Shown here: in pieces, positions 5,104-37,218 of the stretch
How positions within the stretch are numbered: the stretch's first letter is position 1
Layout: the number at the start of each line of letters is the position of its first letter
NCBI GenBank assembly: GCA_041478145.1
Contig: JBGOVO010000002.1
Coordinates: 1-42,229, forward strand
DNA from: Candidatus Methylomirabilia bacterium
GTDB lineage: Bacteria; Methylomirabilota; Methylomirabilia; Rokubacteriales; CSP1-6
Direction: 5' to 3'
DNA: 42,229 bases
Position numbers and translations under genes: made by a program
Notes under the pieces: model-generated
Database searches by the model: none
What the model was told of the DNA's origin: nothing
The model's input: the letters and a program-made list of their open reading frames with translations, nothing else

Positions 5104-6894
5104 CTACCGGTAGAGGGAATCGAGCAGCTCCCGGTGCTTGTCGGTGATGATGCGGCGCTTGACCTTGAGCGTCGGGGTCAGGAGCCCGTTCTCGACCGTG
5201 AAGTCCCCGGGCAGGATCATGAACTTCTTGACCTTCGCGTAGGATTGCAGCTCGGCGTTCCGCTCCTCCACGATGCGCGAGACCCGCTCGACCACCTTGG
5301 GGTTCCGGGCCAGCGAGGACGGATCGGTGTCGAGGATGCCCTGGACCCGGGCGAACTTGGCGAGCTCCTCCGGGTTCAAGGTGAGCAGGGCCACCGGATA
5401 GGGCCGCTTGTCCCCGTAGACCATCGCCTGGCTGATGAACGGATCCCCCTTGAGCAGGTTCTCGATGTTCTGCGGCGCGATGTTCATCCCGCCCGCGGTG
5501 ACGATGAGATCCTTCTTCCGGTCGGTGATGAACAGGAATCCGTCCTCGTCGAGCCGGCCGATGTCACCGGTGGCGAACCAGCCGTCGGCCAGGAAGACCT
5601 CCGCGGTCGCCTCCGGCTTCTTGAAGTAGCCCTTGGCGATGTTGGGCCCGCGCCCCAAAATCTCGCCGTCGGGCGCGATCTTGATCTCGATGCCGGGCTG
5701 CGCCTGCCCGACCGAGCCGAACTTGAAGTGCTCCAGCCGGTTGAACGTGAGCGACGGGCAGGTCTCGGTGAGGCCGTAGCCCTCCAGGATCAGGATGCCG
5801 GCCGCGTGGAAGAACTCGGCGATCTCCTTGGACAGCGGGGCGCCGCCCGAGACCGCGAAGCGCAGGCGCCCGCCGAGCGCCTCGTGGAGCTTGGCGAACA
5901 CCAGGGCGTGGGCGATGCGGTGCTTCAGGGCGAGCGGGGCCGGGACCGGCTGGCGCGCCTGCTGCCGCCTCGACACCTCGCGGCCCACCCCGACCGCCCA
6001 GTTGAAGATCCGGCGCTTGATCGGCGAGCCCGCCTCCGCCTTGGCGAGCACGCCCGCGTAGACCTTCTCGAACACGCGGGGCACGCTGCAGATGAAGTGC
6101 GGCTTCACCTCGGGCAGGTTCTCGCGGAGCTTGTCGATGCTCTCCGCGAACGCGGTGGTGAGCCCCCGGTGCACCCCGATGAACGACTCGAGGCGCGCGA
6201 AGGAGTGGGCGAGCGGCAGGAAGAGGAGATGGGTGTCGCCGTCCTGGATACCGGACATCTTGGCCGCGGACGCGAGCGTGCCCATGTGATTGCCGTGAGT
6301 CTGCACCACGCCCTTGGGCGGACCGGTCGTCCCCGACGTGTACACGATGGTGGCGATGTCTTCCGGGCCGACCGCGGCGACCCGATCGGCCAGCTCGGTC
6401 CGGAGCCGCTCGAGGTTGTCGCGGCCGAGCCGCCGGAGCCGGTCCCAGGTCATGATGTGCGACGACGGCTCGCCCTGATAGCCGTGCATGACCACGATCT
6501 GCTCGAGCCCTTCCATCTTCCCCTGCACCTCGAGGACCTTGGCGAGCTGCGCGGGGTCCTCCACGAACAGGGTCTTCACGCCCGCGTCGTTGACGATGTA
6601 CTGGATCAGGTCCGGCGGGTAGGTCGGGTAGATCGGAATGGTGCGGCAGCCCGCGGAGAAGGTCGCGAAGTCGGCCTGCACCCACTCGGCGCGGCTCGCG
6701 GAGAGGATGCCGACCGCCTCGTCCTTGCCGCGCCCGAGCGCGAGGAGGCCGGTGGCCAGCTCGCGCACGATCTCTCCCACCTGGCGCCAGCTGCGGGTGC
6801 GCCAGGCCCCGCTCTCCTTCCACTGCTGCGCCGGTCGGTCGCCGTCCTTCTCCACCCGGTGCCAGAACATGCTTGCCAGCGTCACGTGGGCCAT
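5104..6894 (-). CDS. Long-chain acyl-CoA synthetase (AMP-forming)
   Basis: 596 aa with the AMP-binding motif IVYTSGTTGPPKGV and later GWFATGDIG and the LKVKRR tail. An AGGAGG RBS lies upstream (revcomp of 6896-6901). Confidence 0.9.
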   Translation of the reverse strand: MAHVTLASMFWHRVEKDGDRPAQQWKESGAWRTRSWRQVGEIVRELATGLLALGRGKDEAVGILSASRAEWVQADFATFSAGCRTIPIYPTYPPDLIQYIVNDAGVKTLFVEDPAQLAKVLEVQGKMEGLEQIVVMHGYQGEPSSHIMTWDRLRRLGRDNLERLRTELADRVAAVGPEDIATIVYTSGTTGPPKGVVQTHGNHMGTLASAAKMSGIQDGDTHLLFLPLAHSFARLESFIGVHRGLTTAFAESIDKLRENLPEVKPHFICSVPRVFEKVYAGVLAKAEAGSPIKRRIFNWAVGVGREVSRRQQARQPVPAPLALKHRIAHALVFAKLHEALGGRLRFAVSGGAPLSKEIAEFFHAAGILILEGYGLTETCPSLTFNRLEHFKFGSVGQAQPGIEIKIAPDGEILGRGPNIAKGYFKKPEATAEVFLADGWFATGDIGRLDEDGFLFITDRKKDLIVTAGGMNIAPQNIENLLKGDPFISQAMVYGDKRPYPVALLTLNPEELAKFARVQGILDTDPSSLARNPKVVERVSRIVEERNAELQSYAKVKKFMILPGDFTVENGLLTPTLKVKRRIITDKHRELLDSLYR

Positions 6895-6904
6895 GGTCGC
6901 CTCC

Positions 6905-8410
6905 TCACGTCTGTGTGCGGAGCTCTTTGCGCAGGATCTTGCCGATCGGGCTCTTCGGCAGCGACTCCACGAAGCGGATCCGCTTCGGACACTTGAAGCG
7001 GGCGAGCCGGCCCTCGCAGAACGCGCCGATCTCCTCCGCGGACGCGCGCTCGCCGCTGCGGAGCACCACGAACGCGAGCACGTCCTCTCCCATGAGAGGG
7101 TCCTTCATGCCGACCACCGCGGCCTCCGCCACCTTGGGGTGGGCGTAGAGCACCTCCTCGACCTCGCGCGGGTAGATGTTGAAGCCGCCGCGGATGATGA
7201 GGTCCTTCTTGCGCTCCATGATGAACAGGAAGCCGTCGTCGTCGAGCCGGCCCATGTCCCCGGTGTGGAGCCATCCGGCCCGCACCGTCCGCGCGGTCTC
7301 CTCCGGATTGCGGTAGTAGCCGACCATGACGTTCCGCCCGCGGACGCACACCTCGCCCAGCTCGCCGGCGGGCAGCGGCCGGTCCAGATCGTCCTGGATC
7401 GAGATCTCGACGCCGGGGATCGCGCGGCCCACCGAGCCGATCCGGCGCGGGCCGGAGAGGCGATGGGCCGACACCACCGGCGAGGCCTCGGTGAGGCCGT
7501 AGCCCTCCAGGATCCGGCCGCCGAACTTCCGCTCGAACGGCTCCACGATCTCGACCGGCAGTGGAGCCGCTCCGGAGCCCCAGACTCGCATCGAGCGGGT
7601 ATCGAAGCGATGGGCCTCCGGGAAGTTCAGTAGGTAGATCAGCATCGTGGGCACTGCCGACATCGAAGCCGCTCGGAACTCCTGGATGGTCTGCAAGACC
7701 GCTTCCGGATTGAACCACCGGAGCAGCGCAGCCCGCGAGCCCAGGATGTGGCCGGCGTTCATGACCGTGAGCCCGTAGGAGTGCGACAGCGGCAGGACCG
7801 CCACCGCCCAGTCCTCGCGGCCGAGCTCGTTGAGCGAGGCGGCCGCCCGCGCGTTGGACTCGAGGTTGTCGTGAGAGAGGGCCACTCCCTTGGGCACCCC
7901 GGTGGTCCCCGAGGTGTAGAGGATCATCGCGAGATCGTCGGGGCGGCGATCGACCGTGGGGAAGGCGTCCGACTCCCCCGCCTTCTCGGCGGCCAGCGAG
8001 CGGGTCTGGCCGTCCCCGCCGCCGTCCACGAGGAGGACGTGCAAGAGCGTGGGCAGGACCCCGATCTGCGCCTCGACCTTCCAGAGCATGTCGGCGGCGG
8101 TGATCACCACCTTCGCCTCGGAATCGGCCAGGATGTGGGCGACCTCCCGATCGCCCAGCAGGAAGATGACCGGCACGATGACGCCCCCGCACTTGAGGAT
8201 GGCCCCGTAGCTCTGGGTCACCTCCGGGCAGTTCGGCAGCATCACCACCACGCGATCCCCGACGCCGACGCCCAGCCGGCGCAGGGCGTGGGCCAGCCGG
8301 GAGGCCTCCCGCTGCTGGTCCAGGTTCGTGTATCGGCGTCCTTCGAAGGCCAGCGCGACGTACTCGCCGTACTTGTCGAGGCTCTCTTCCGCCAGGTGGG
8401 CGAGAGACAT
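6905..8410 (-). CDS. Acyl-CoA synthetase (AMP-binding, FadD-like)
   Basis: Contains ILYTSGTTGVPKGV, GYGLTE, GWLHTGDMG and PKSPIGKILRKEL. I prefer the ATG at 8410 (MSLAHLAEE...). The track ORF starts at a GTG at 8422. Confidence 0.85.
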   Translation of the reverse strand: MSLAHLAEESLDKYGEYVALAFEGRRYTNLDQQREASRLAHALRRLGVGVGDRVVVMLPNCPEVTQSYGAILKCGGVIVPVIFLLGDREVAHILADSEAKVVITAADMLWKVEAQIGVLPTLLHVLLVDGGGDGQTRSLAAEKAGESDAFPTVDRRPDDLAMILYTSGTTGVPKGVALSHDNLESNARAAASLNELGREDWAVAVLPLSHSYGLTVMNAGHILGSRAALLRWFNPEAVLQTIQEFRAASMSAVPTMLIYLLNFPEAHRFDTRSMRVWGSGAAPLPVEIVEPFERKFGGRILEGYGLTEASPVVSAHRLSGPRRIGSVGRAIPGVEISIQDDLDRPLPAGELGEVCVRGRNVMVGYYRNPEETARTVRAGWLHTGDMGRLDDDGFLFIMERKKDLIIRGGFNIYPREVEEVLYAHPKVAEAAVVGMKDPLMGEDVLAFVVLRSGERASAEEIGAFCEGRLARFKCPKRIRFVESLPKSPIGKILRKELRTQT

Positions 8411-17337: not shown

Positions 17338-19826
<2,489 letters not shown>

Positions 19827-19830
<4 letters not shown>

Positions 19831-22307
19831 GCGTGCCTCCGCCACCGGTCGAGCTCGTCCTTGACGACGCCGTCGCGGCAATCCGGACAGATGCTGTGGC
19901 TGAACTGGGCGTGCGAGTGCTCGGCGACGTAGCTCTCGATCTGCTCCCAGTAGTTCTCGTCGTTCCGCACCTTCCTGCAGTACGAGCAGATCGGGAGCAG
20001 GCCCCGCAGGGCTTTCACCTCCCCGAGCGCCTGCTCGGCGGCCCGGCGGGCGGCGCCCTGCGCCTCGAACAGCGAGGCGTTGCGGATGGCGACCGCCGCC
20101 TGGTCCACGAAGGCGTCCAGCAGCCGCTCGTCCTCGCCGTCGAGGCGGAACGGCTCCCGGCCATTCAGCGCGAGGATCCCGAGCAGGACGCCGTCCAGCA
20201 TGACCGGCAGTCCGAGGAAGCTCTTGAGCCCATGGCTGCGCCACCAGTCGAGCGCCACGAAGCGGCCGGCGCTGTATACGTCCGGCACGTTGACGTTACG
20301 CCCGTAGCGGGCCACCCAGCCGAGCACGCCCACGTCGAAGGGCAGGCTCGGCACCGGCCAGTCCGCCTCCAGCGTCCGGTCGGAGAACCCCACCAGCCGC
20401 AGCGTCCGCGAGTCCTGGCTGGCGACCCAGAAGCAGGCCGCGGTCGTTCCCGCGAGCTGGGCCGCCGCCATCGTGATCTCGTGGAGCACGTGGTCGAGGT
20501 CGAGGCTGCTCGAGACCAGCCGGTTGAGCCGGGTCACGGTGTGCAGCCGCTGGATCCTGGCCTGGCCCGCCGCGTAGAGGCGGGCGTGGATGATGGCGAT
20601 GGCGGCCTGGTCCACGAAACTCTGCAGGAGCGTGTCGTGCTCGGGGCTGCCGACGAACGGCGCGTTGGAGGCGATGGCCAGGACACCGATCGCGGTGTCG
20701 CCGTGCAGGATGGGCACCGCCACCCCGCTCCGCAGGCCGTGGTCCCGGAACCAGCCCGCCGCGCGCGTCCGCGGATCGGCGTCCAGGTCCGGCACGTGAA
20801 TGGTCCGCCGGGTGCGGATCGCCGCGCCCACGACGCCCTCGTCGAAGCGCATGACCCGCACCGGGTAGTCGTCCCAGAGCGCGGGATGCGAGAGGGCGCG
20901 GGCCGATAGCGTCTCGCGGGCCTCGTCGGCGGTGAACACCATCACGAGGTCCGCGTTCATCAGGCGGGCCGCCGCGCGGGCGATCTCGTCGAGGATCCGA
21001 TCGAGGTCCAGCGAGTTCGTGATCAGCCGGTTCAGCGCGGCCAGCGTGTCCGTCCGGTGGAGACGCTCTTGCAGATCGTCGCGCAGACGCATGTGCTCCA
21101 GGGTGAGGGCCACCCGGTCCGCGAAGGATGCCAGGTACGAGATCTCCTCCGGACTGTAGCGACGCGGCGCCTCGGTATTGAGGGTCAGAACGCCGAGGAG
21201 CCGGCCTCCGGCCTTGATCGGCAGACCCAGGTAGCTGACGATGCCGGCCGCCCGATCGCGCTCGGCCAGGAAGTTCCGGGGATCGTTCTGGCAATCCGCG
21301 GAGAACAGGACCTCACCCGTGGTCGCCACCGTTCCCGAGTAGCTACCGTTGAGCGGAAGCTCGACACCCACCGGCACCACGCCATCGGCCACCGCGGCAA
21401 CCCGGAGCACCTGGCGCGCCTCGTCCAAGAGCAGGACCTTGACGTAGGTGGTGCCCGCGAACCGGGAGGCCTCGGTCACGATCTGACCCAGCATGGAGGG
21501 CAAGTCCATCTCGGTCATGACCGCCCGCTCGGCCCTCAGCAGGGCGGCCATCGCTTCCTGGCGGGCCTCGATGGCGCGCGTCTGGGCCGATACCGCGCTC
21601 TCGAGGTCAGCGGATAGCCGGGTGAAGCGCGCGACCAGGAGGTAGTGCAGCCCGACCGCGACGGCGACGAAGGCGTAGTCGAACAACCGGACGCTCTCGA
21701 TGACGTGGGCGGCGTGGAGCACATCGTTGACCGCGCACGCGACATAGACCGCGAAGCTGACCAGGACCGCGCGGCGCACCCCCGGCGCGAGCGAGCGGCT
21801 CTGCCACACCGTGAAGACGCAGTACGCGAACACCGCGAACAGGCAGGGCACGAGCGCGGTCATGAGAGGCCCCGGTTCGTGCGTCCAGTACCGGCCCCCC
21901 AGTCGATCGGTCCTGAGGTACACCGCGCCCGTAATGATGATGTTGTCGCCGAGCCACACGAGGGCGAGGAGGGCCAGGTCCGCGCCCGCGACACCGGCCA
22001 GCAGCGCCCGCGGAAGAGGCTTGCCGGCGAGGGCGTGGCTCAGGCCGATCATCACCACGATCAGGAGCAGCGAGCTCATCCAGGCCAGCCGGCCGCCCAG
22101 TCCGGCCCACTCGGGGCGATCCACCATCGTTTGCAGATAGTGACTCGCCAGGACCAGCAGGGTGTTGGCGCACCAGGCGACCACCCAGGGATGGAGCGGC
22201 TCACGCCGCCGCCCGAGCCAGAGGAAGAGCTGCTGCACGCCCACGGACGCGACGACTCCCATCAGGAGCAGCAGCGGCGTGGCCGAGCTCGGGGTGAAGG
22301 AGGCCAT
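19827..22307 (-). CDS. Membrane sensor: N-terminal multi-TM (about 7 TM) region, three GAF domains, C-terminal four-Cys module; no recognised output domain
   Basis: 826 aa. Hydrophobic segments span roughly the first 230 aa. There are three GAF-like repeats, each ending in ...G(V/I)L(T/A)(L/I)...(e.g. LGVLTLN, IGVLAIAS, LGILALNG). The C-terminus is LLPICSYCRKVRNDENYWEQIESYVAEHSHAQFSHSICPDC. Confidence 0.85.
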
Positions 22308-22334: not shown

Positions 22335-22706
22335 CTAGCGCCGGAACTCCCGTGCCGAGATGCCGTAGCGCTTCATCTTCCCGTGCAGCGTGGTGTAGTT
22401 GGTGCGCAGCAGCCGCGCCGCCTGGCTCTTGTTGCCCTGCGTGGCGATGAGCGCGCGGCGGATGGCCTCGCCTTCAGCGTGGGCCACCGCGCCGTCCACG
22501 ATCTGACGCAGCGAGAAGGCTCCGACGGTCATGCGCGCGGGAGCTGCGACCGGAGCGGCGGGACCGTGGCGATCGGCCGCGGAGGCGACCGGCCGGAGCG
22601 CCGGGAACGCGTGGCCACGGACTGGGAGCAGCGCCTCGGCGGACGGCGCCAGCCGCTCCGGATTCCGACTCGTGATCCGGGGTGAGACGGCTTCGAGAGT
22701 GCTCAT
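22335..22706 (-). CDS. Stand-alone Fis-type HTH_8 DNA-binding protein (truncated paralog of the adjacent NtrC-like activator)
   Basis: 123 aa. The C-terminus GNKSQAARLLRTNYTTLHGKMKRYGISAREF is nearly identical to the activator C-terminus GNKSQAARLLRTDYTTLHAKMKRYGISARDF. It has its own GGAGGG RBS and a sigma-54 promoter upstream. Confidence 0.75.
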   Translation of the reverse strand: MSTLEAVSPRITSRNPERLAPSAEALLPVRGHAFPALRPVASAADRHGPAAPVAAPARMTVGAFSLRQIVDGAVAHAEGEAIRRALIATQGNKSQAARLLRTNYTTLHGKMKRYGISAREFRR

Positions 22707-22758
22707 GTATTCCCTCCTCGTGGGGGCTCGGCCAATGCGGCCGCCCTCTCATCCTGGG

Positions 22759-22773
22759 GCAAGGCTGGTGCCA
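22759..22773 (-). promoter_or_regulatory. Sigma-54 (-24/-12) promoter TGGCAC-CAGCC-TTGC
   Basis: The plus strand reads GCAAGGCTGGTGCCA, so the minus strand reads TGGCACCAGCCTTGC. This is a perfect consensus with correct spacing. It lies about 50 nt upstream of the ATG at 22706. Confidence 0.7.
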
Positions 22774-22910
22774 GGCGGCGGCGGCGGACGCTCATCACCC
22801 ATCCGGAGCATCCGGTGAACTACTTCAAATACTTGGCGGCCGCCTTCCGGGCGGGCGGGTGACGCGGGAGAGACGAGGGCGAGGCGGGTGACAGCGCGGC
22901 GGCCCCAGAA

Positions 22911-22930
22911 CTATGGCGGCGACGCCATAG
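22911..22930. promoter_or_regulatory. Candidate enhancer (UAS) palindrome CTATGGCG-N4-CGCCATAG
   Basis: Perfect 8-bp inverted arms lie about 140-170 bp upstream of the -24 element on the minus strand. The site is just 3' of the activator gene's stop. Confidence 0.4.
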
Positions 22931-22951: not shown

Positions 22952-24346
22952 TCAGCGCGGAGCGAAATCCCGGGCGGAGATGCCGTAGCGCTTCATCTTG
23001 GCGTGAAGCGTCGTGTAGTCGGTACGCAGGAGACGGGCCGCCTGGCTCTTGTTGCCCTTGGTGGCCTCCAGCGCGCGGCAGATCACCTCGCGCTCCGCCT
23101 GCACGGTTGCCAGCTCCGCCACTTCGCGAAGCGAGAGGTCCTCCCCGCCCGGCTCGGCGGCGGCGGCGCGCGACGGGACGGAGAGCGACGCGTTCAGGGC
23201 CGGGAGGTGCTCCGCGGTCACCACGTCCGACGCCAGGAGGGCCGCCTTGCGGATCACGTTCTTCAGCTCGCGGACGTTGCCGGGCCAGTCGTGACGGAGC
23301 AGCGCGCCCATGGCGTCGTCGGCGATCCGCCGCACCGAGCGGCGCAGCTCCATGCTCACTTCGTCGAGGAAGCGCTGCGCGAGATGGGTGATGTCCTCGC
23401 GCCGGCTCCGGAGCGGCGGCAGCGTGATCGAGAACTCGCTGAGCCGGTAGTAGAGATCGGCGCGGAAGCGGCCGGCCTTCACCCCTTCCTCGAGCTCCGC
23501 GTTGGTGGCGGCGATGATGCGCGCGTCCACCGCCACCGCGCGGGCGGCGCCGAGCGGGTGCACCTCCCGCTGCTCGAGCACTCGCAACAGCTTGGCCTGC
23601 GTGGCCAGCGGCACGTTGCCGATCTCGTCCAGGAATAGCGTGCCACCTCGGGCGAGCTGGAAGTGTCCTTCGCGGCGGCTCTGCGCGCCCGTGAAGGCCC
23701 CGCGCTCGTGCCCGAACAGCTCGGACTCCACGAGGGTCTCGGGGATGGCGCCGCAATCCACCGCCACGAACGGAGCCTTCTGTCTCGGGCTCTGTTGGTG
23801 AATGGCGCGCGCCACCAGCTCCTTGCCCGTTCCCGTCTCCCCCTGGACCAGGACGGTGAAGTTGGACTCGGCCACCTGGGCCACCTGCTGGATCACCTGG
23901 CCGATCGCGGCGCTTCCCCCCATGCGCTCGGCCAGCGAGCTGCCCTGCCCCTGCCGCTTCAGCTCCTCGATGCGGGACCGGAGCTGATTTCGCTCCACCG
24001 CCCGCTGCAGGGTGAGGACCAGCAGCTCCACGTCGAAGGGCTTGGTCAGGAAATCGTAGGCGCCGAGCTTCATGGCCCGCACCGCGGTGGCGAGGTCGGC
24101 GTGGGCGGTGCAGATGATCACCGGGACGTCTCCGTCCAGCCGCTTGATCTCGGGCAGCGCGTCCATGCCGCTCATGCGCGGCATGCTGAGGTCGAGGAGG
24201 ATCACCGCGGGCCGCTCGCGTTGCACCTGCTGCAGGGCGGCGGCTCCGTCTTCGGCCGCCACGACCTCGAATCCCTTGCTCTGGAGGACGGCACCGAGGA
24301 GGGACCGGATCTCGGCCTCGTCGTCGACCACCAGGATCTTCGTCAC
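22952..24346 (-). CDS. Sigma-54-dependent response regulator (NtrC family: REC - AAA+ - HTH_8)
   Basis: REC domain (ILVVDDE...ILLDLSMP), Walker A GETGTGKE, an intact GAFTGA loop, and a C-terminal HTH_8. GTG start. Confidence 0.95.
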   Translation of the reverse strand: MTKILVVDDEAEIRSLLGAVLQSKGFEVVAAEDGAAALQQVQRERPAVILLDLSMPRMSGMDALPEIKRLDGDVPVIICTAHADLATAVRAMKLGAYDFLTKPFDVELLVLTLQRAVERNQLRSRIEELKRQGQGSSLAERMGGSAAIGQVIQQVAQVAESNFTVLVQGETGTGKELVARAIHQQSPRQKAPFVAVDCGAIPETLVESELFGHERGAFTGAQSRREGHFQLARGGTLFLDEIGNVPLATQAKLLRVLEQREVHPLGAARAVAVDARIIAATNAELEEGVKAGRFRADLYYRLSEFSITLPPLRSRREDITHLAQRFLDEVSMELRRSVRRIADDAMGALLRHDWPGNVRELKNVIRKAALLASDVVTAEHLPALNASLSVPSRAAAAEPGGEDLSLREVAELATVQAEREVICRALEATKGNKSQAARLLRTDYTTLHAKMKRYGISARDFAPR

Positions 24347-24350
24347 CAGG

Positions 24351-25193
24351 TCATCCCGTCGCCCGCAGCTGGTAGATGGCGATGTGACGGATCGCCGCGA
24401 TCGGACGCGCGCCCCCCGCCACCAGCAGCAGATCCAGCTCCACGAACTCGTGCCCCTTGCCCTGGAAGAGGTTCTTCACCTTGACGCGGGTTTCCAGCCG
24501 CTCGCCCACCCGGGGCACACTCAGATGCTGGCCGTGGCTCTCCACGTGGATCCACGGACTGACCCGCACGTTGCGGTCGAGCGATCGGTTCGCCTGGTCG
24601 AGGTAGAGCCCGGGATGCGCCGGCGCGTCGGCGTCGCGATACATCGTCAGCGTGTCGCCGACCTTGACCAGGAAGGCGTCCACCACCGACCGTTCCAGGG
24701 CGAGCTCGGGGGTGCCGAGCACCGTGCGGCTCGCGAGGAAGGCGCGGCTCGCGAGGGGGCGGTCCGCGGGCAGCGGAGCCGCCGGGTAGGCCGCCACGTC
24801 GGGCAGCGGCAACAGGGGACCGAGCGGGAGCCCCATCGTCGCGGTCGCGCAGACGTCGTCCTCGTCGTTCACCGCGCGGGCCTGGATGGTGACCTCGTCC
24901 TTCGAATGCGCCGCGACGCTCGCGCGCACCGTGACCGGCTGGCCGAAGTAGACGGGCTTGGCGAAGCGCACCGAGAAGGTGCCGTGGTCCAGCCACGCCC
25001 ATCCGAGCGCCGCCACCACCGGCCGCGTCATCCACGAATAGACGGTCACCCCGGGAACCAACCCGCCCCGGAACCCGAACTCCCGGGCCAGTCCGTCTTC
25101 GTGGATCTTGTTCTCCCAGGCATCCTGCGTCGCGGTGGCGCTGACCCGATACTCGGGGAGCGCGGTTCCCACCACCAGGGCCTCGAGGCTCAT
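24351..25193 (-). CDS. Double hotdog-fold protein (MaoC-dehydratase-like halves)
   Basis: I take the internal ATG at 25193, which overlaps the upstream stop (ATGA). The 280-aa protein has two halves, each with a hotdog-like pattern (VYFGQPVTVRASV...; VGERLETRVKVKNLFQGKGHEFVELDLLL). The assignment comes from the pattern only. Confidence 0.55.
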   Translation of the reverse strand: MSLEALVVGTALPEYRVSATATQDAWENKIHEDGLAREFGFRGGLVPGVTVYSWMTRPVVAALGWAWLDHGTFSVRFAKPVYFGQPVTVRASVAAHSKDEVTIQARAVNDEDDVCATATMGLPLGPLLPLPDVAAYPAAPLPADRPLASRAFLASRTVLGTPELALERSVVDAFLVKVGDTLTMYRDADAPAHPGLYLDQANRSLDRNVRVSPWIHVESHGQHLSVPRVGERLETRVKVKNLFQGKGHEFVELDLLLVAGGARPIAAIRHIAIYQLRATG

Positions 25194-25873
25194 GGCTCGA
25201 TCTTCTTGCCGCCGTAGCCTCCGGCGACGTCCTGGTCCGCGTTCCATCTGACCCAGGTCGCCTCGAGCGCGTCGACGGTCAGCTTGCCGGGTGGTCCGGG
25301 CATCCCGGCCGCGGGCACGAGCACCTCCTGCGGACCCGTCAAGGCTCGCTCCCACTGCCGATCCGGCCCGGCGCACACCGCGGCCCCGTGATGGACCTGC
25401 ACGAGGAGGGAGCCGTCCGGGTTTCGCCTCAGACCGACCCCGCTGCCGCGGACGGTGACGACGGCGGGACCCGCGCGCACCTCGACGTGAGTCGTCGCGG
25501 GGCTGCCGGGCATCACCGCGATCCAGAGCCAGCCGTTATCCAGTCTGACGCGGGTCGGCCCGGGCGCGGCGCCGCTCTCGGCCGCGAGCAGCGCGAGTTG
25601 AGAGCGCGAGCCCAGCCGTAAGACCTGACCGCTGGCGGTCCGGAGCGTGACTCGCCCCCCGACCTGAGTCCGCACGCTGTCGCCTTCACTCAGCTCGGCT
25701 CGGAGCGCCGCGGATGCCCAGGCCGGCGTGTCCTTCTTGTGCAGCTCGGCGGTCCCGCCGAGCGTGACGATCTTGGCTGGCAGCTCATTCGGCTGAGCCC
25801 ACCCCGGAGGGCTGGAAAGGCCGGCGAGGAAGGCGGCCCCAGCCAGCACGGCCGCTCGCGCGATCTTGGGCAC
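25190..25873 (-). CDS. Secreted FecR-domain protein
   Basis: GTG start at 25873, 7 nt after GGAGG. The signal peptide is VPKIARAAVLAGAAFLAGLSSPPGWA/QP. The FecR-like beta pattern is LSEGDSVRTQVGGRVTLRTASGQVLRLGSRSQLAL. Confidence 0.65.
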   Translation of the reverse strand: MPKIARAAVLAGAAFLAGLSSPPGWAQPNELPAKIVTLGGTAELHKKDTPAWASAALRAELSEGDSVRTQVGGRVTLRTASGQVLRLGSRSQLALLAAESGAAPGPTRVRLDNGWLWIAVMPGSPATTHVEVRAGPAVVTVRGSGVGLRRNPDGSLLVQVHHGAAVCAGPDRQWERALTGPQEVLVPAAGMPGPPGKLTVDALEATWVRWNADQDVAGGYGGKKIEP

Positions 25874-35419: not shown

Positions 35420-35434
35420 TGGCACCGCTCTTGC
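35420..35434 (+). promoter_or_regulatory. Sigma-54 (-24/-12) promoter TGGCAC-CGCTC-TTGC
   Basis: Perfect consensus read directly from the sequence. The GGAG RBS is at 35452-35455 and the ATG at 35464, about 30 nt downstream of the -12 element. Confidence 0.7.
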
Positions 35435-35463
35435 TCGATTTCTCACCGCCTGGAGCCCTCCGA

Positions 35464-37218
35464 ATGAGCACGGGACCCATCAATCGCGAGGTGGCCTTCG
35501 CCGGCCAGCAGGTCCGGCGCAAGGTGATCTTCGCCCTCGCCCTGTGCTCGGTCATCCCACTCTTGCTCTTGACCTACGCATTCCACGGGCCGATGCGCGA
35601 GTTCCTGGGCCCGCTCGCGGGCATCGCCGACGCGATCAGCATTCCCGCCCTGATGGTATTCGCCGCGCTCCTGATGGCAGGCGGGGCCTTCATCGTGTGG
35701 GACATCGCCACCGCCCTGTCACGCGCCGCGCAGCTCAGCAACCAGCGCAATCCGGAGTTGCCGGCGGACCCCGGACGCAAAGACGAGATCGGCACGCTCA
35801 TGAGCTCGTTCGCGCGCATGCTCGCCACCATCGAGCAGCAGGCGGAGGAGATCAACGAGTTCCCGCGCCGCCTGGACCAGCTCATCCGCGAAGCCTTCCG
35901 GGATTCGCTGACCGGCCTGCCCAACCGGGCGCTCTTCATGGACCGGCTCGCCCACGCCCTCACCCGCGCCGAACGCAGCGGAGGGAACCTGGCGGTGCTG
36001 TTCCTCGATCTGGACCGGTTCAAGATCCTGAACGAGACCCTCGGCCACGAGGTCGGCGACCGCCTGCTGCTGGAGGTCGGACATCGGATCGCGGCGTGCC
36101 TGCGCCCCGAGGACACCGTCGCCCGTCTCGGCGGCGACGAGTTCGGGCTGCTCCTCGAGGAGGCCGCCGATCTCAGCGCCGCCACCGCGCTGGCCGAGCG
36201 GGTCTCCGCCGAAATCCAGCGCCCCTTCGTCGTCGAGGGGCGCGACGTCCTGATCTCCGCGAGCATCGGGGTGGCGCTCACCGGTGGCGGCTCGATGCAG
36301 CCGGACGAGGTGCTGCACAACGCGGACCTCGCGATGTACCAGGCCAAGGCCGAGGGGCGCGCGCGCTACGAGCTGTACCAGCCCGACCTCAGCGTGTCCA
36401 CCCGCGAGCGGCTCGATCTGCAGTCCGACCTCCGGACCGCGGGTGCCCGGCAGGAGCTGAGCCTCCGGTACCAGCCCGTAGTGACCCTGAGCTCGATCCA
36501 CGCGGTCGAGGTCGAGGCCCTCATCCGCTGGGATCACCGTCGTCGGGGCGCCCTGCTCCCGGCCGACTTCATCGCGCTATCGGAGGAGACGGGGCTGATC
36601 GTGCCGATGGGCCAGTGGGTGCTGCGCGAGGCCTGCCGCCAGGCGCGCGCCTGGCAGACCGACGGCCGCGGCGCCGCGCCCCTCATCGTCGGCGTCAACC
36701 TGTCGGCGAGCCAGTTCGAGCGGGACGCGCTGCCCGCCGAGATCGCGGTCATCCTGCGCGAGACCGGGCTCGAGGCGGCACACCTACAGCTCGAGGTCAG
36801 CGAGGCGGTGCTCATGCGAGACGACCCGAGGATGCTGGACCGGCTCGAGGCCCTCAAGAAGATCGGCGTGCGTCTGGCCATCGACGACTTCGGCACCGGC
36901 TACGCCTCCCTCTCGTACCTCAAGCGCCTGCCCGTGGACTGCCTCAAGATCGACCGCTCCCTCATCAAGGGCTTGGGGCATGAGACCGAGGACACCGCCA
37001 TCATCCGCGCCGTGGTCACCCTCGCGCAGAGCCTCGGCATCATGGTGACCGCGGAAGGGGTGGAGACCGCCGAGCAGCTCTTCCAGCTCCGCGCGGTCGG
37101 CTGCGACCGGGGCCAGGGCTACTACTTCGCCCGGCCCGTTTCCGCCGACCGCGTGCCCGATCTGCTCGCGAGCCTCGACGCCGACGAGCGGCACCGGAGC
37201 CCCTCATGTCTTGGCTGA
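35464..37218 (+). CDS. Membrane-anchored GGDEF-EAL protein (diguanylate cyclase / phosphodiesterase)
   Basis: Two TM segments plus a HAMP-like linker. The active site RLGGDEF is intact, with an RxxD I-site (RPED) 5 residues upstream. EAL-domain motifs are EVEALIRW, DDFGTGYASLSYL and EGVET. Confidence 0.9.
   Translation: MSTGPINREVAFAGQQVRRKVIFALALCSVIPLLLLTYAFHGPMREFLGPLAGIADAISIPALMVFAALLMAGGAFIVWDIATALSRAAQLSNQRNPELPADPGRKDEIGTLMSSFARMLATIEQQAEEINEFPRRLDQLIREAFRDSLTGLPNRALFMDRLAHALTRAERSGGNLAVLFLDLDRFKILNETLGHEVGDRLLLEVGHRIAACLRPEDTVARLGGDEFGLLLEEAADLSAATALAERVSAEIQRPFVVEGRDVLISASIGVALTGGGSMQPDEVLHNADLAMYQAKAEGRARYELYQPDLSVSTRERLDLQSDLRTAGARQELSLRYQPVVTLSSIHAVEVEALIRWDHRRRGALLPADFIALSEETGLIVPMGQWVLREACRQARAWQTDGRGAAPLIVGVNLSASQFERDALPAEIAVILRETGLEAAHLQLEVSEAVLMRDDPRMLDRLEALKKIGVRLAIDDFGTGYASLSYLKRLPVDCLKIDRSLIKGLGHETEDTAIIRAVVTLAQSLGIMVTAEGVETAEQLFQLRAVGCDRGQGYYFARPVSADRVPDLLASLDADERHRSPSCLG

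Follow-up and report, generated by a model that had tools for sequence, protein, structure and literature searches.

Transcription from sigma-54 promoters depends on enhancer-binding proteins (bEBPs) as its obligatory switches, and several of these activators are negatively controlled by dedicated proteins, as in the PspA/PspF, NifL/NifA, FleN/FleQ and HrpV/HrpS pairs. Such anti-activators are often encoded in an operon that depends on the activator itself, pspA being the first gene of the PspF-dependent operon, and PspA, NifL, FleN and HrpV are unrelated in sequence to the activators that they control, acting on the AAA+ or regulatory domain by protein contact. To our knowledge, every dedicated bEBP inhibitor targets the ATPase (AAA+) or sensory domains. 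Some regulators are inactivated when a truncated paralog forms heterodimers with the full-length protein, as in SinI/SinR and TrlR/TraR. MerD is a small protein that has the DNA-binding region of MerR and that is encoded in the MerR-activated mer operon, where it binds the operator of MerR and down-regulates the operon (PMC6523443). [quoted passage not shown]

The DNA analyzed here (hereafter the window) is a stretch of 42,229 nucleotides from a Candidatus Methylomirabilia bacterium (assembly GCA_041478145.1, contig JBGOVO010000002.1). On its minus strand, a small gene at 22335..22706 encodes a stand-alone HTH_8 protein of 123 aa, in which residues 76-114 match the Pfam HTH_8 model (PF02954) with 38.7 bits, for a cut-off of 22 bits. 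Next to it, on the same strand, lies the gene of its parent paralog (22952..24346), an NtrC-type sigma-54 activator of 464 aa with Pfam REC, Sigma54_activat (238 bits), AAA_lid_14 and HTH_8 domains and with GAFTGA and Walker motifs visible in its translation. This activator is the only bEBP within the window, and its best NCBIfam matches are of the AtoC/NtrC type, all under the equivalog cut-offs.

The first-pass annotation of this DNA had proposed that the C-terminal part of the small protein is an ungapped copy of the C-terminus of the activator, and BLASTP indeed paired residues 64-121 of the small protein (22344..22517, minus strand; dimerisation/scaffold helix plus helix-turn-helix) with residues 404-461 of the activator (22964..23137, minus strand; DNA-binding domain) with 41/58 identities and E = 1e-24, so that the HTH_8 domain of the small protein is ~71% identical to that of its neighbor. 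Profile-profile comparison with hhalign gave a probability of 99.9% to the same match. Within the stretch GNKSQAARLLRT(N/D)YTTLH(G/A)KMKRYGISAR, only the two residues reported earlier differ between the two proteins. At the DNA level, the collinearity at an offset of 620 nt is real as well: the two coding segments, which form a direct repeat, are 82% identical between 22344-22478 and 22964-23098, identity over 174 nt is 73% at this offset versus 29 +/- 4% at random offsets, and the perfect runs of 23 nt (22357-22379 = 22977-22999) and 22 nt (22417-22438 = 23037-23058) are exact. The similarity that had been seen between the two linkers (FPALRPV versus LPALNAS) did not hold up, as profile-profile confidence is zero upstream of the ~60-aa domain and as this segment is variable among family members; that the N-terminal half and linker of the small protein are homologous to the lid and linker of the activator was thus rejected. 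Pfam and BLASTP agree that paralogy is confined to the DNA-binding domain (DBD), the small protein having no REC and no AAA+ domain and no Sigma54_activat match by Pfam.

Matches of the small protein to Pfam and NCBIfam models are confined to its HTH_8 region, and no NCBIfam model claims the protein. Its N-terminal half is predicted to be disordered and its C-terminal half to form a DNA-binding domain of the Fis/NtrC type: AlphaFold2, run with a 30-homologue alignment, left residues 1-55 disordered (pLDDT <50) and folded residues 60-120 into a long helix followed by a helix-turn-helix (pLDDT 87-97; helices 66-88 and 93-113). The family alignment of 30 homologues has 38 invariant columns, most of them in the C-terminal domain; the last ~60 residues are almost invariant, the linker is variable and rich in Pro, Ala and Arg, and the N-terminus is semi-conserved (M-S-T-x-E-A-V-x-P-W-I-S-S). 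Ahead of the gene, a strong ribosome-binding site GAGGAGGG (22712..22719, minus strand), seen in the sequence and in the intergenic alignment, ends 5 nt before the ATG at 22706, and a site of the GGAGGAG type is kept at the same position in the aligned intergenic regions.

A profile search of the PDB returned FleQ, the NtrC DNA-binding domain (1ntc) and Fis as the nearest solved sequences, and Foldseek ranked Fis first among PDB structures, although not significantly (E >0.1); Fis chains are thus among the top matches by both sequence and fold, and the helix-turn-helix of the small protein aligns residue for residue with that of Fis, Asn84 included. The small protein parallels Fis in its fold and probable origin. 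It differs from Fis in several respects, however. The NCBIfam equivalog model of Fis (NF001659) gives it 19.5 bits for a cut-off of 99; the N-terminal beta-hairpin arms and helix A of Fis are not predicted, residues 1-55 being disordered; its nearest relative is its own neighboring activator; and its gene lies behind the sigma-54 promoter that this activator presumably controls rather than in a growth-phase operon of the dusB-fis type. Moreover, its candidate site, described below, is a G+C-rich palindrome with specific hexamers, whereas the Fis site is A/T-rich and read by shape.

Homologues of the small protein of 95-130 aa number at least 230, and those with a taxonomic name mostly come from Methylomirabilota or Rokuibacteriota. 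The earlier annotation had suggested looking for the truncated paralog in orthologous loci, and a pattern-based synteny scan with one genome per species, seeded with the small protein, yielded 20 loci, all of which (20/20) have the gene order MaoC-like gene, bEBP, small gene, a GAF gene in some, and histidine kinase. In these loci, the activator is 72-88% identical to that of the window and the spacer between the activator and small genes is 205-260 nt long. Since this first scan was seeded with the small protein, the search was repeated on metagenomes with the activator C-terminus as seed. The small gene was then found in 5 of the 6 orthologues that were informative (activator identity >=68% and enough downstream sequence); the sixth locus (L026) lacks the small gene although palindrome, promoter and a lipoprotein gene are all there, which indicates that the small gene is not essential to the activator. 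Around ~60 more distant bEBP loci, no second HTH_8 copy was found within downstream flanks of up to 4 kb (shorter on some contigs), so that the arrangement is specific to this lineage, and the idea that a small HTH_8 copy is a general habit of bEBP loci was rejected. In a representative library clustered at 50% identity, the true stand-alone family, recognizable by its 'TNYTT' motif, spans only ~15 clusters; many other short matches in that library are fragments of full-length bEBPs that start inside the AAA+ lid. The small HTH_8 gene, judged from these comparisons, is therefore real, conserved and stand-alone, and not an orphan.

The first-pass annotation had presented the small gene as a partial duplicate of the neighboring 3' end. 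The paralogy stands, but a local and recent copy does not: the pair is ancient and clade-wide, being shared with 25 further syntenic loci. Across the 20 genomes, nucleotide identity between paralogs in the HTH region is 0.830 within genomes and 0.833 between genomes, identical residues use the same codon in a fraction of 0.67 within and 0.68 between genomes, and perfect runs of at least 23 nt occur in 26% of the paralog comparisons made between genomes. With a GC3 of 0.86-0.92, the perfect runs of 22-23 nt can be attributed to identical protein sequence, kept by selection at the protein level, together with strong codon bias. Recent duplication or gene conversion was therefore rejected, the absence of any excess of DNA identity within genomes leaving no sign of conversion.

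The three most divergent loci (L014, L017 and L018) indicate how the small gene may have arisen. Each of them carries two tandem modules made, in this order, of an HTH_8-coding 3' end, the palindrome, ~130 nt, a sigma-54 promoter, a ribosome-binding site and a lipoprotein gene. In L014 and L018, both modules are collinear at the DNA level across the HTH-coding and lipoprotein-coding segments, and the two lipoproteins of L014 share 47% identity (E = 3e-32); in L017, the match was limited to the HTH-coding segment. The small gene was thus probably born by tandem duplication of a segment comprising the 3' end of the activator gene, the enhancer, the sigma-54 promoter and the first gene of the operon. 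The modules bear the mark of a tandem segmental duplication starting inside the activator gene, and such an event accounts for the small gene being a 3' fragment that carries a control region copy of its own. Since that duplication, the gene has been kept under purifying selection across a Rokubacteria/Methylomirabilota lineage, with pN/pS of 0.30 over the C-terminal 58 codons and of 0.52 over the first 14 codons.

In the window, the small gene is followed by the second gene of the sigma-54 operon (19827..22307, minus strand), which encodes an 826-aa membrane protein that contains three GAF domains and ends in a Cys/His-rich tail; Pfam and synteny place this gene in roughly one out of two orthologous loci. 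The operon ends with a gene (17338..19830, minus strand; Pfam, synteny) for a hybrid histidine kinase with the architecture PAS-GAF-PAS-HisKA-HATPase-REC. The start of this gene is uncertain, as the listed open reading frame runs to 20244 and overlaps the GAF gene. Such a kinase lies downstream in every locus long enough to show one, homologous kinases adjoin related bEBPs, and it is likely the cognate kinase of the activator. On the other side, a MaoC-like (hot-dog fold) gene (24351..25376, minus strand), assigned from a weak Pfam match and from synteny, ends 4 nt before the activator start and is syntenic in all loci.

That the small gene has a sigma-54 promoter of its own, as had been proposed, is well supported by the sequence and the alignment: positions 22773..22758 of the minus strand read TGGCACCAGCCTTGCC, a perfect -24/-12 match (TGGCAC-N5-TTGCC, with the -24 GG at 22772-22771 and the -12 GC at 22760-22759) located ~50 nt upstream of the ATG. 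All aligned loci (21/21) have the pattern TGGCA[CT]-N5-[CT]TGC, as do the second modules of L014, L017 and L018, and no sigma-70 promoter was predicted between the activator and small genes. The small gene is also the first one behind this promoter, as first described, in the window, but it comes second in the three divergent loci, after the lipoprotein gene. About 75 nt upstream of the promoter, between it and the palindrome, the intergenic alignment revealed an A/T-richer box (22814..22836; CCAAGTATTTGAAGTAGTTCACC on the minus strand, core CAAGTA), of which a similar stretch is found in the second modules and which is a candidate site for a DNA-bending protein of the IHF type or for a second regulator.

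Just 3' of the activator stop codon, alignment and a motif scan identified a palindrome at 22911..22930 (CTATGGCG-GCGA-CGCCATAG), with the family consensus CYATRG-N8-CYATRG, as a candidate enhancer (UAS) for the activator HTH_8 domain and, putatively, for that of the small protein. Conservation is 85% or higher in the hexamers, whereas the first six positions of the spacer are variable. The 42-kb window has no other match, each orthologous locus has one copy, and no further palindrome was found in 251 kb of orthologous loci except in the second modules of L014, L017 and L018, where it was duplicated along with the promoter. The distance from its center to the -24 GG downstream, measured in 23 modules, is 116-167 bp (mean 137). 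Three loci with bEBPs that are 50-56% identical to that of the window and that have a recognition helix of the same type (TDY/F-K-TLHLKMK) carry the same palindrome at another place, 30-45 nt upstream of the bEBP start codon (L028, L029 and L031), and two of them (L028 and L029) have a kinase homologue upstream on the opposite strand. Since the palindrome accompanies the HTH_8 domain of this clade in two genomic arrangements, it is likely its cognate site and, from these sequence comparisons, likely the enhancer of the 22758-22773 promoter. The Fis dimer contacts guanines at +/-7 (PMC4784862), and the centers of the two palindrome hexamers are 14 bp apart, which is the same spacing. A function of the palindrome as intrinsic terminator of the activator gene was considered unlikely: no terminator was predicted, there is no T-run, the hexamers are conserved rather than covarying and the site also occurs upstream of related activators. 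Helical phasing between palindrome and promoter is weak (R = 0.44, nominal p ~0.01, on related sequences) and we do not rely on it.

The two paralogs share the recognition helix, for which YTTLHAKMKRYGI is the consensus common to small proteins and activators, and they differ consistently at its first residue: all small proteins (21/21) have Asn there and all activators (20/20) have Asp. Asp is also found there in the relatives that are 50-56% identical, and Tyr in L026. The preceding helix, which forms a dimer contact in this fold family, also differs between the two groups, reading SLRQIVDxAVxxAEGEAIRRAL in the small family versus SLREVAELAAVQAERExIRHAL in the activators. Thus, the fixed Asn/Asp difference and the divergent preceding helix indicate that the small copy is a specialized protein and not a plain fragment. 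The Asn aligns with Asn84 of Fis, which contacts one base and one phosphate in Fis-DNA crystal structures (PMC4784862). With one negative charge fewer beside the DNA, the replacement of Asp by Asn may raise the affinity of the small protein for DNA; it could equally mean that the two proteins differ in their site preferences. Divergence of the preceding helix may prevent mixed dimers, so that each protein forms homodimers of its own.

Considering that the small protein shares the recognition helix of the activator, that the locus has a single conserved candidate enhancer, that an AAA+ domain is missing from the small protein and that its gene is promoter-proximal in an activator-type sigma-54 operon in which the probable cognate kinase is also encoded, competition for the enhancer with negative feedback, much as the first-pass annotation had suggested, is the mechanism that best accounts for the locus, and we would put its probability at slightly under even. 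According to this model, the phosphorylated activator would bind the palindrome and fire the sigma-54 promoter; the small protein would homodimerize and bind the same single palindrome, where it would be unable, without an AAA+ domain, to remodel the sigma-54 holoenzyme; and, as it builds up, it would occlude the enhancer so that the output of the operon falls. The circuit would then combine positive feedback, through more kinase, with delayed negative feedback, through more competitor. The main loose end of this model is the N-terminal motif of the small protein: a passive decoy would have no need of it, and its conservation in a disordered tail hints that there is a protein partner. Palindromes may also exist at other promoters, as part of a wider regulon, beyond the ~250 kb of related genomes that were scanned.

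Such a circuit would, by analogy, follow the same logic as that of MerD, which the small protein resembles in having the DNA-binding domain of its activator without the effector or activation domains. It differs from MerD in that the latter has the MerR winged helix fold and works with sigma-70, in that merD is promoter-distal while the small gene is promoter-proximal, and in that binding and antagonism were demonstrated for MerD, whereas they are proposed for the small protein. Like PspA, NifL, FleN and HrpV, it would be a protein dedicated to negatively controlling a sigma-54 activator; however, it shows no homology to these families (its Pfam and NCBIfam matches being those to the HTH_8 region) and no domain that could dock on the AAA+ ring, its N-terminal half being disordered with a short conserved motif. 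As a DBD only, it would target the enhancer or the DBD of the activator. [quoted passage not shown]

Other explanations, which are not mutually exclusive, have to be weighed against enhancer competition. The small protein could be the output transcription factor of a cascade, which the activator would induce and which would bind palindrome-like or variant sites at other promoters to repress or activate sigma-70 genes, any effect on its own operon being secondary. Fis, the known stand-alone relative of the NtrC DBD, is itself a free-standing transcription factor (PMC6428758), the Asn that is fixed instead of Asp at a DNA-contacting position could shift specificity, and the conserved N-terminal motif could serve as a contact for RNA polymerase or for a partner. 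Nevertheless, the recognition helix is otherwise identical to that of the activator and, duplicated modules aside, neither the window nor the 251 kb of orthologous loci contains a second palindrome, and we regard this explanation as rather unlikely. Still somewhat less probable in our view is that the small protein acts as a poison subunit, forming mixed dimers with the activator through the helix that precedes the helix-turn-helix and thereby breaking its dimeric enhancer tether or disturbing hexamer assembly. This helix is homologous in both proteins (13/27 identical here), domains of the Fis/NtrC type are generally known to dimerize through this region, and SinI/SinR and TrlR/TraR provide a precedent; but the putative interface carries family-specific differences (EVAELAAVQAERE versus QIVDxAVxxAEGE) of the consistent kind expected of paralogs that are insulated from mixed dimers, and no covariation between the two helices was seen across genomes in an alignment read by eye.

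If the small protein did bind at or near the enhancer, it might also help rather than hinder the activator: as an architectural co-activator, a small dimer of the Fis/IHF type would bend the DNA there or at the 22814-22836 box and so aid contact of the activator with the sigma-54 holoenzyme, giving positive feedback. The rank of Fis among the closest solved relatives, the conserved A/T-richer box between enhancer and promoter and the Fis-like half-site spacing of 14 bp, which implies DNA bending, all speak for this possibility. Yet this box has no clear palindrome half-site, a protein with the recognition helix of the activator is expected to occupy the site of the activator itself, and in L026 the promoter module exists without any small gene; we consider such a role improbable. 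As for the small gene being a non-functional remnant of the partial duplication that stayed open by chance, its segmental origin and its absence from L026 are what one would expect, but frame, start codon and ribosome-binding site are intact across 25 further loci with activators that are 70-88% identical, and the 38 invariant columns among 30 sequences, the pN/pS of 0.30 and the minimum of 230 database homologues leave this reading effectively refuted by conservation, with a very small residual probability.

Returning to enhancer competition, the fuller proposal that we derive from it is somewhat less probable than the mechanism itself, and we put it forward tentatively. A DBD-only paralog, born by tandem duplication together with its enhancer-promoter module and induced by the activator, would displace that activator from a single-site enhancer; affinity tuning or coupling to a further partner would be the role of the exchange of Asp for Asn and of the N-terminal motif; and, with the co-transcribed kinase, it would make up a pulse or adaptation circuit. 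It would then be the first sigma-54 anti-activator that acts at the enhancer and not on the AAA+ motor. Our literature searches returned no description of a DBD-only bEBP paralog, although an empty search is not a proof of absence, and no published work on sigma-54 regulation in Rokubacteria.

If this proposal is true, a conserved, activator-induced protein made of a DNA-binding domain only would add enhancer occlusion to the natural modes of control of sigma-54 activators, and the locus would be a clear and datable case of a new regulator arising from a partial tandem duplication, comparable to the origin of Fis from NtrC that has been proposed. The competitor/activator pair would also be compact enough for use in synthetic sigma-54 circuits. 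The CYATRG-N8-CYATRG palindrome, finally, provides a testable enhancer motif for an uncultivated soil phylum.

The GAF membrane protein of the operon (826 aa; window 19827-22307, minus strand) combines a multi-pass membrane N-terminus with three GAF domains and ends in a Cys/His-rich tail, LPICSYCRKVRNDENYWEQIESYVAEHSHAQFSHSICPDCRD, for which there was no Pfam match. Its whole gene is found in about half of the orthologous operons and is missing from the others. The histidine kinase ORF as listed (17338-20244, minus strand) overlaps the 3' end of this GAF gene by ~400 nt. Since alignments of loci lacking the GAF gene to the kinase ORF begin only at residue ~115-143, the true start of the kinase gene is probably near 19830.

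Another sigma-54 promoter of the window, a perfect match at 35420-35435 on the plus strand (TGGCACCGCTCTTGCT), is followed by a GGAG sequence and then by an ORF with its ATG at 35465 (plus strand), whose product begins with MSTGPINREVAF and contains a hydrophobic segment. The CYATRG-N8-CYATRG palindrome is absent near this promoter, and the NtrC-type activator adjoining the small HTH_8 gene is the only bEBP encoded in the window; the promoter is presumably driven by a regulator encoded elsewhere.

In the divergent lineage, the first gene after each palindrome and sigma-54 promoter module encodes a lipoprotein-like protein of ~120 aa. L014 carries two such paralogs (6577-6945 and 7493-7864), and further paralogous genes are present in L017, L018, L026 and L027. 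These proteins have a signal peptide followed by a Cys, share the conserved motif DxRxVAxPxGxYxMTxSxxMARSxCIAS and belong to no family in Pfam or NCBIfam; the window itself contains no gene of this type.

Five soil MAG contigs (L002, L004, L012, L013 and L019) bear the labels Verrucomicrobiia, Deferrimicrobiaceae, Dormiibacterota, Acidoferrum and even the archaeon Nitrosotalea; they are syntenic, their activators are 86-88% identical to those of Rokubacteria, and they are probably mis-binned. In the long-read MAG locus L020 (6950-7207), the N-terminal part of the small gene (…VEDV..PWISSLDMG…) is out of frame with the HTH part, probably through a frameshift introduced by the assembly and not because the gene is a true pseudogene. 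Among the profile matches, the metagenomic protein P0128 (472 aa) lacks an AAA+ domain and has an unusual architecture of four HTH_8-like repeats in tandem; it bears no relation to the window.

The CYATRG-N8-CYATRG palindrome was also found 5' of more distant activator genes, at L028:2962-2981, at L031:231-250 and, as two overlapping copies, at L029:2206-2239. These activators are only 50-56% identical to that of the window, and in L028 and L029 the opposite strand upstream carries a kinase homologue. In all three loci, the palindrome lies 30-45 nt upstream of the activator's own start codon. These observations suggest autoregulation and a common DNA specificity throughout the bEBP clade to which these activators and that of the window belong.
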